The position numbers were made by a program, and so were the translations under genes. From the IMG/VR virus record IMGVR_UViG_2671180524_000020: a stretch of 5,045 nt of DNA. One strand, given 5' to 3'. This DNA is from a virus. Its lineage: Duplodnaviria; Heunggongvirae; Uroviricota; Caudoviricetes. The notes under the pieces are model-generated. The model saw nothing but the letters and a program-made list of their open reading frames with translations, did not search any database and was not told the origin of the DNA. Each line of letters opens with the position of its first letter. Within the stretch, counting starts at the first letter, position 1. Positions 45-1,367 of this stretch are shown here, piece after piece.

Positions 45-309
45 TCATAACACCGTCGGACAACGCAAATCGTAAATCAGCACGGAAACAGAAAACGGCA
101 GTTCCCCCTGCACGAGGTCTTCCCGCTCAGCAAGATCCGGATTCCGGTACAGCATCCCGGTCAGTCGCATGGCAGCCCCCTTCATCCGGGTTAATGCCTC
201 NNNNNNNNNNNNNNNNNNNNNNNNNNNNNNNNNNNNNNNNNNNNNNNNNNGCGTCATGGTCGACACGCAGATGTGCCTTGATCTCTTCCAGTGTCAGTAA
301 TGCCGTCAT
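45..309 (-). CDS. gp6-like head-tail connector (head completion) protein, interrupted by an assembly gap
   Basis: ATG at 309..307 overlaps the TGA (308..306) of the upstream gene as ATGA. The N-terminus MTALLTLEEIKAHLRVDHD matches my recollection of the gp6-like connector family N-terminal motif. After the gap, the frame ending at the TGA 47..45 gives ...AAMRLTGMLYRNPDLAEREDLVQGELPFSVSVLIYDLR, which fits that family's C-terminal pattern as I remember it. The pre-gap and post-gap frames differ by 1 nt with a 50-N spacer, so the true gap length is unknown and the protein length uncertain. Confidence 0.6.
201..250. other. Assembly gap (run of 50 N), almost certainly a length placeholder
   Basis: 50 consecutive n characters. 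Coding frames on either side only join if the real gap length is a multiple of 3. Confidence 0.95.
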
Positions 310-1367
310 TTTCCGCCTCCTGCATCCCGTCCACGTTTGGCAGCCAGGGTCCAGCCTGATGAATGAGCTTCTCCGGGTTTATCACCGGTCATACTGTTGC
401 AGTGCCACAGCGAGCCCCCCCACGTCACCGTATCACCGGGGTGGTAGGTTTCACCGGCTCTGAACACACCGCGGTAGAGCATCACCGGCAGGGAAAATGT
501 TTTTTCCGTACGCTGGCCACTGCTCTGCCGGACCACCACAGNGAACNACCGNTCNCCNGTCATGCTGACGTCAATATCNGCCACCCCGTCAACCAGGCAT
601 TCCCATCCCCGCATCCCGTGCGTTTTTTCATACGCCCGCCAGAGTCCGCCCTGGTGTGTGGCATACGTGCCCCGGGGAAAGGATTTTTGATCGTCAATGG
701 CGGGGATTATTTCCAGTGCCGTGGCATCACGCCCGTCCTGCGGAGCCGGCAGGGCTCTCACCGCATCCAGAACAGCCTTCTGCAGAACATCGGGATCATA
801 GTCACGACCATCACGCGGAACAGGAATATGGCTTACCGCCTCTTTCACCATCTGTTCAAGCATCGGACGCACATCATCGGGGGTAATACTTTTGCCGTCC
901 GCCGGTACCGGAATATTCGCAACCGCATCATTCACCGCCTGCTTCAGTACTTCCGGATCATAATCACGACCGTCACGCGGAGCAGGGATATGGCTTACAG
1001 CCTCTTTCACCATCTGCTCAAGCATCGGACGCACATCATCGGGGGTGATACTTTTGCCGTCCGCCGGTACCGGAATATTCGCAACCGCATCATTCACCGC
1101 CTGCTGCAGTACATCCGGATCATAATCACGACCATCACGCGGTACCGGAATGGTCCCCACAGCGTCATCCACCATCGCCTGCAGAACCGGATGTACCTCA
1201 TCCACCGTCACATGCTTCTGTAATACCGCCGACAGGGAAGCCAGTTTCTCTTCAAACGCTTGTGCCTGCGCGGCCATCTTCCCCTCAAATGTGCGCTGTA
1301 AATCCGCCAGCACCGTGGAGAATTCTTCGCCCAGTGCACGAATAATGGACAGTTCCCGTTCCGTCAT
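306..1367 (-). CDS. Tandem-repeat virion-associated protein: N-terminal coiled-coil-like segment, about 7 copies of a ~27-aa repeat, C-terminal CBM5/12-like (chitin-binding type 3-like) motifs
   Basis: 353-codon uninterrupted ORF. Its ATG (1367..1365) overlaps the portal TGA (1366..1364) as ATGA, and its TGA (308..306) overlaps the next ATG. Central repeats are IPVPRDGRDYDPDVLQQAVNDAVAN alternating with IPVPADGKSITPDDVRPMLEQMVKEAVSH. The C-terminal segment FRAGETYHPGDTVTWGGSLWHCNSMTGDKPGEAHSSGW follows the pattern I recall for CBM5/12 domains, with a weaker second copy (GTYATHQGGLWRAYEKTHGMRGWECL). The domain assignment is from memory, not a search. Ambiguous bases at 542..579 lie inside this ORF. 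Confidence 0.75.
   Translation of the reverse strand: MTERELSIIRALGEEFSTVLADLQRTFEGKMAAQAQAFEEKLASLSAVLQKHVTVDEVHPVLQAMVDDAVGTIPVPRDGRDYDPDVLQQAVNDAVANIPVPADGKSITPDDVRPMLEQMVKEAVSHIPAPRDGRDYDPEVLKQAVNDAVANIPVPADGKSITPDDVRPMLEQMVKEAVSHIPVPRDGRDYDPDVLQKAVLDAVRALPAPQDGRDATALEIIPAIDDQKSFPRGTYATHQGGLWRAYEKTHGMRGWECLVDGVXDIDVSMXXXRXFXVVVRQSSGQRTEKTFSLPVMLYRGVFRAGETYHPGDTVTWGGSLWHCNSMTGDKPGEAHSSGWTLAAKRGRDAGGGK
542..579. other. Cluster of six ambiguous base calls (n) inside the repeat-protein gene
   Basis: Single n at 542, 547, 552, 555, 558 and 579, giving X residues in the translation between the two CBM-like motifs. The n at 579 is a wobble position (GCN = Ala). Confidence 0.9.
794..1200. repeat. 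In-frame tandem direct repeat, 162-bp unit, two near-identical copies plus a diverged partial third
   Basis: Unit 1 (794..955) and unit 2 (956..1117) align with about 9-10 mismatches in 162 bp; the ~80-bp segment catcggacgcacatcatcgggggt(a/g)atacttttgccgtccgccggtaccggaatattcgcaaccgcatcattcaccgcctgct is nearly identical in both. A third partial copy starts at 1118, and more diverged copies extend to about 740. 162 bp = 54 codons = two 27-aa protein sub-repeats. Confidence 0.85.

Follow-up and report, generated by a model that had tools for sequence, protein, structure and literature searches.

A proposed, length-variable portal partner in lambdoid prophage heads with a protease–capsid fusion occurs both as a separate gene and as an in-frame extension of the portal

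Between the genes for an HK97-family portal protein and a gp6-like head-tail adaptor, the viral DNA analyzed here (5,045 nt in full, hereafter the window) encodes a 353-aa protein, X, which is a member of a large, unnamed, and uncharacterized but widespread family of phage head proteins. Some lineages encode X as a fusion with the portal, others as a protein of its own, and we tentatively propose that it may well be a minor head protein docking on the crown, the inner side of the portal. Gene X occupies positions 306–1367 on the minus strand (ATG start in the ORF list; stop codon at 306–308), and its product matches the profile phrog_1289 over the full length (E 7.4e-176; residues 1–353 against profile positions 1–331 of 331). 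Its relatives fill 5580 clusters at 50% identity, and the C-terminal domain is under purifying selection in both the fused and the split state (dN/dS 0.14 and 0.30, respectively). Together, these three results rule out a chance ORF. The label "portal protein" carried by phrog_1289 is not a tested function. Several "X" letters in the translation stem from masked bases (N) of the window and not from the gene.

The neighboring genes lie on the same strand. A prohead protease/major capsid protein (MCP) fusion of 645 aa (2940–4877; PF04586 and PF05065) is followed by the portal of 454 aa (1364–2728; PF04860, E 3.5e-79; TIGR01537, 365 bits), which ends in a variable tail. The portal stop and the start of X share an ATGA at 1364–1367 (…AGA AAA TGA, overlapped by ATG ACG GAA), an overlap shared by Salmonella phage FSL SP-016 and Pseudomonas phage PAJU2. 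A second ATGA at 306–309, evident from the sequence and from the annotation of close matches, joins the stop of X to the start of the adaptor gene (45–309; ORFs 127–309 and 45–266), whose close matches are annotated as head-tail connector. In the window, the adaptor gene is broken by a masked run of N at 201–250, which seems to be 62 nt too short, as the window measures 5045 nt against 5107 nt in matching genomes. The ORF, its placement between portal and connector, and both overlaps were proposed in the initial annotation and are confirmed. Its view that translation ties X to portal and adaptor is supported, and X is likewise a distinct protein outside the canonical domains of portal and connector. 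That such a protein would be unexpected at this position did not hold, the arrangement being very common in this head type.

The order protease–MCP fusion, portal, X, adaptor is found at 35 proteobacterial species loci, with the exception of loci cut by contig ends, and at all 35 X is a separate ORF that starts at or just inside the portal stop. These loci were found with a four-sequence alignment (A3), and the relation of the portal to the start of X was read where both genes are present. The same order recurs in phages PAJU2, IME307, and FSL SP-016, and Rhizobium phage RHph_X2_26 displays the order portal, X, head-tail joining protein, the overlapping arrangement thus extending from Enterobacterales to Rhizobiales. 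Because the order is conserved with X separate and overlapping in 35 species, the window represents the ancestral split state. Moreover, its portal ends in …FRGILRK before the stop codon and the Salmonella portal in …IRGFLTK; by sequence, the two C-termini are homologous. The tip domain of X co-occurs with the protease–MCP fusion head type in all species loci with upstream flank present. In an Oceanospirillum phage whose head module is of the lambda type, the post-portal gene encodes the same N-terminal helix and IPAPKDG repeats with a different tip, which, from this one lambda-type example, suggests that the tip tracks the head type and not the host. The portal-proximal position first suggested for X is strongly supported by this invariant synteny and by portal–X fusions in several lineages.

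X consists of three regions. An N-terminal helical region (residues 1–72; 1152–1367, minus strand), proposed to serve in docking or oligomerization, is followed by an acidic repeat stalk (residues 73–214; 726–1151, minus strand), supported by TRF, motif positions, and net charge, and by a conserved C-terminal β-domain (residues 215–353; 309–725, minus strand), supported by alignment A1 and the AF2 model. This layout of helix, repeats, and β-tip agrees with the initial annotation. The "about seven 27-aa repeats" described there are real as repeats and differ in number and unit: The stalk holds six [IL]PxPxDG motifs ([IL]PxPx[DN]G, at residues 73, 98, 127, 152, 181, and 206) in units that alternate between 25 and 29 aa, giving a 54-aa (162-nt) double unit present in 2.3 copies with 91% matches (TRF, 775–1151). 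Comparing copy number across related prophages, as had been suggested, reveals alleles from 245 to 569 aa among near-identical prophages, with length steps of 54 aa. Since the stalk varies this much, X is unlikely to be a ruler that sets the length of the elongated Stx2c phage heads. With a net charge of −9 to −57, the stalk is strongly acidic. Across distant members, the β-domain retains 33 invariant columns (alignment A1), and it is modeled by AF2 at a pLDDT of ~97 with an 82-sequence alignment; a single-sequence model of homologue P0116 reached only 39.6. In the AF2 model, the overall layout looks fiber-like. Sequence and profile searches of the PDB matched only the CBM module and designed repeat proteins. 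PF28083 is precomputed on many homologues.

A G5 tract at 1379–1383 on the minus strand (C5 on the plus strand) lies 12 nt upstream of the X start codon. One extra G at this site (G6 for G5) places portal and X in one ORF, and in roughly half of the related E. coli prophages in the sample, X is joined in frame to the portal C-terminus in this way (33 G5 and 41 G6 among 74 alleles, from 72 IMG/VR loci and two database records). Where the window reads …FRGILRK and stops, the fused proteins read …FRGDTEKMTEREL. This fission/fusion polymorphism was missed in the earlier reading of the DNA. Fused coding sequences of 859 and 861 aa are deposited for phages 2851 and YYZ-2008, respectively, and X is split in the sequenced phages BP-4795 and 1717; phage 2851 is reportedly viable. 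On a tree of the 72 alleles, the G5/G6 state changes at least eight times compared to about 24 changes for random labels, and the state appears mostly stable within lineages. The exact G5 junction is present in at least 341 complete E. coli records and is therefore not a sequencing error. Short junction queries against RefSeq E. coli returned 341 (G5) and 7 (G6) exact matches, counts that are confounded by flanking SNPs and serve here solely to exclude such an error.

Fusion of X to the portal tail is found in four sequence groups. Besides the E. coli G6 alleles, these comprise a Pantoea-type clade of 12 clusters with 61–69% identity to the query, a Pandoraea protein (P0434), and an unassigned metagenomic protein (P0441); in both of the latter, a collagen-like stretch precedes the tip of X. 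The ancestral start methionine is strictly conserved in 12 of 12 Pantoea-type fusions, and an SD-like GGA[AG] lies 5–8 nt upstream of it in all four Pantoea-type fusion DNAs examined. Thus, free X may still be made in these lineages, and the fused copy is possibly not the functional one. Other C-terminal add-ons, a Zeta-toxin/AAA_33 domain and an HExxH-motif domain, are found on relatives of this portal.

Databases name X variously as "portal protein", "gp6-like connector", "carbohydrate binding domain protein", or a frameshifted pseudogene. Pfam and NCBIfam yield no match of X to the portal domain (PF04860/TIGR01537), which lies whole in the neighboring ORF; the name "portal protein" is inherited from the fused alleles (phrog_2271). 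Similarly, the gp6-like head-tail connector domain (PF05135, Phage_connect_1) has no match in X and resides in the next gene, and the NCBI "gp6-like connector" homologues of 289–297 aa are plain X proteins. The pseudogene label, used by PGAP and in some GenBank records, implies that X is the remnant of a longer, frameshifted portal gene and functionless alone. RefSeq indeed merges portal and X as "phage portal protein, frameshifted" in O111 strain 11128, the X region is called a portal pseudogene in some Stx phage records, and fused ORFs are common in E. coli. However, this interpretation is barely credible, as it is contradicted by a split state that is standard throughout the 35 other species as well as in phages of Pseudomonas, Salmonella, and Rhizobium, by the homology of the G5-frame portal C-terminus to that of Salmonella, and by the purifying selection on split-state X. 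In addition, X lacks a portal domain, the sequenced phages BP-4795 and 1717 carry the split form, and the recurrence of the G5 junction excludes a sequencing error. We also consider it highly improbable that the G tract serves as a programmed frameshift site or phase-variable switch that yields short portal and portal–X at a set ratio. If tRNA-Gly slipped by −1 on G GGG of the G5 allele, translation would yield exactly the fused sequence FRGDTEKM…, and the repeated changes of state on the tree would suit a switch, but the junction TTC AGG GGG ATA contains no canonical slippery X XXY YYZ heptamer (cf. lambda G/GT and dnaX) and the G tract has no counterpart in Salmonella and Pseudomonas relatives. 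Further, eight changes against about 24 for random labels denote a mostly stable state, and five or six G are short for phase variation. The split form in the window is thus no pseudogene, and its junction is not a site of programmed frameshifting.

The tip of X contains one CBM5/12-like segment (residues 303–325, GDTVTWGGSLWHC…; 393–461, minus strand), which scores 21.1 bits against Pfam CBM_5_12 (PF02839; E 3.3e-4) and stays below the gathering score of 26.2 bits. Among nine homologues scanned, P0126 reaches 29.8 bits and others 17.9–24.8 bits, and three (P0124, P0221, and P0140) give no PF02839 match. The segment adopts the small antiparallel β-fold of CBM5/12. Of the CBM5/12-like motifs claimed for the C-terminus, one is confirmed at the level of fold. 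The solvent-exposed aromatic pair of CBM5/12 is absent from X: In the HMMER alignment, the Y-W of 2rts falls on "a-e" of the X consensus, and these positions are S/M in the window protein and variable and non-aromatic across the family. In ChiC, the pair stacking on the sugar is W59/W60. Compared with characterized CBM5/12 modules (PF02839; S. griseus ChiC, 2D49; S. marcescens ChiB), X thus displays variable polar residues in place of the chitin-binding aromatics, and its module is embedded in a larger β-domain of ~140 aa. Members from E. coli through to Rhizobiales share a conserved tip, which thus spans very different hosts from Gamma- to Alphaproteobacteria. As one would expect the tip of an adhesin to differ between hosts, this conservation counts against glycan binding, and the glycan-binding tip of the initial annotation is doubtful. 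Matches to the CBM5/12 fold include tail-fiber/baseplate proteins of Agrobacterium phages 7-7-1 and Milano and a baseplate protein of an Anabaena contractile injection system, BFVD matches of X include collagen-repeat phage proteins, and collagen-like tails or GXY runs occur in some X members.

Since X is always encoded beside the portal gene and in some cases joined to it, docking on the portal is its most likely role. Portal and X are made from one late transcript, and the overlap suggests that translation of X would be coupled to that of the portal, which would supply X in roughly portal-like rather than capsid-like amounts. X may persist in the mature head, as the P22 portal barrel and SPP1 gp7 do, or may act solely while the prohead is assembled. 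Judging from the fusions, the N-terminal amphipathic helix (residues 3–50) would dock on the portal's flexible C-terminal tail or beside it; this tail would emerge from the crown, the portal face inside the capsid. To our knowledge, every solved portal (SPP1, P22, T4, T7, phi29, and HK97) has its C-terminus in the crown, within the capsid. GFP fused to the C-terminus of T4 gp20 is reportedly located within the head. Structure and charge suggest that the acidic helix–PxPxDG repeats would act as a spacer, growing and shrinking by 54-aa steps through unequal recombination, and that the conserved β-domain with its CBM5/12-fold module would bind a conserved partner. This partner is more likely a component of the head type (the scaffold/protease–MCP core, the capsid interior, or the DNA end) than a host glycan. 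Several observations stand against docking on the crown. A segmented helical stalk, collagen-like GXY runs (in some members), a compact β-tip with a carbohydrate-binding fold, and a hypervariable number of repeats make up the architecture of an external fiber; a very acidic stalk would be electrostatically awkward beside packed DNA; and free X may arise from the conserved methionine and SD-like motif within the fusions. Our literature search on PAJU2, Ab31, BiPBO1, AH14a, Stx phages, and neck fibers found no virion proteomics or structures locating X.

Placed outside the capsid, oligomers of X, probably trimers, could be anchored at the portal–adaptor junction as a neck or head fiber, with the tip binding surface polysaccharide and aiding adsorption. 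The architecture in the AF2 model, the CBM5/12 fold matches in phages 7-7-1 and Milano and the Anabaena injection system, the BFVD matches, the collagen-like tails, and the variation in repeat number from 245 to 569 aa are in line with such a fiber, as is the coupling of X to the adaptor gene, and the internal start in the fused lineages would permit free X. We nevertheless regard this as unlikely. X is fused to the internal C-terminus of the portal in four groups, the fused E. coli alleles are under purifying selection, the tip is highly conserved across host classes, and the chitin-binding aromatic pair is missing; moreover, many of the BFVD "collagen" matches may be X-family members and hence not independent evidence. 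The head or neck fiber of the initial annotation thus stands in its portal proximity, and its external placement is hard to square with an in-frame fusion to the portal C-terminus. Improbable in our view is that X is an ejected pilot or cargo protein, kept on the crown and leaving through the tail, whose tip would bind GlcNAc-containing peptidoglycan strands in the periplasm. The post-portal gene position recalls SPP1 gp7/Mu gpF-type internal proteins, the tip is conserved across Gram-negative hosts, which share peptidoglycan, and has the CBM5/12 fold, and related portals bear the Zeta-toxin/AAA_33 and HExxH add-ons. On the other hand, a covalent portal fusion would block ejection unless cleaved, the aromatic binding pair is absent, and the known periplasm-spanning protein of siphoviruses is the tape measure protein. 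A broader version, to which we likewise give little credence, would make the C-terminus of this portal lineage a general docking or fusion platform for internal cargo (X and, in relatives, the Zeta-toxin-like kinase or the HExxH domain), carried on the crown within the head, produced fused and, from a nested start, free, and released through the tail, with the tip of X gripping peptidoglycan. If true, such a platform would be the siphovirus counterpart of podovirus ejection proteins and MuF polymorphic toxins.

Docking of X on the portal crown, the reading we prefer, has partial parallels in known systems. Like X, SPP1 gp7 and Mu gpF (PF04233) are encoded immediately downstream of the portal; they are portal-bound, low-copy internal head proteins, whereas portal binding by X is suggested by gene order and fusions. 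The MuF family also resembles X in its exchangeable C-terminal domains. Overall, the resemblance of X to SPP1 gp7 and Mu gpF is positional only: X has helix, repeats, and β-tip instead of the MuF fold, and PF04233 is not among its Pfam matches at E up to 1. The barrel of the P22 portal (gp1) is a long helical extension from the crown into the capsid; comparably, X in the G6, Pantoea, and Pandoraea alleles is a portal C-terminal extension starting with a helix of ~50 residues. In contrast, the P22 barrel is a coiled coil of ~120 residues without repeats or globular tip, is never a separate gene, and shares no sequence similarity with X. In lambda C/Nu3 and herpesvirus UL26/UL26.5, a long fusion and a short protein from an in-frame internal start have a common C-terminus, and the long form anchors assembly of the short one. 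The conserved methionine and SD-like motif of the fused portal–X ORFs suggest the same nested logic, but those systems are protease–scaffold pairs, and internal initiation of X is predicted from its sequence. T4 fibritin, the phi29 gp8.5 head fiber, and the lactococcal neck passage structure share with X an N-terminal anchor, a segmented helical stalk, a C-terminal tip, and dispensable-looking length variation. Unlike X, they are external, are not encoded beside the portal, and have no known portal fusion, and we found no sequence or fold match between them and X.

With X annotated correctly, many prophages lose a false "defective portal" call. This conserved, portal-linked protein, whose stalk varies in length while its tip is conserved, is an unstudied part of a head type that is very common. 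The natural G5/G6 pair offers isogenic split and fused forms for studying the portal crown in assembly, DNA retention, and delivery. Among 5426 complete E. coli genomes, 1256 carry the X-bearing head module, most often as multiple copies, and long-tailed Stx1/Stx2 phages have it as well.

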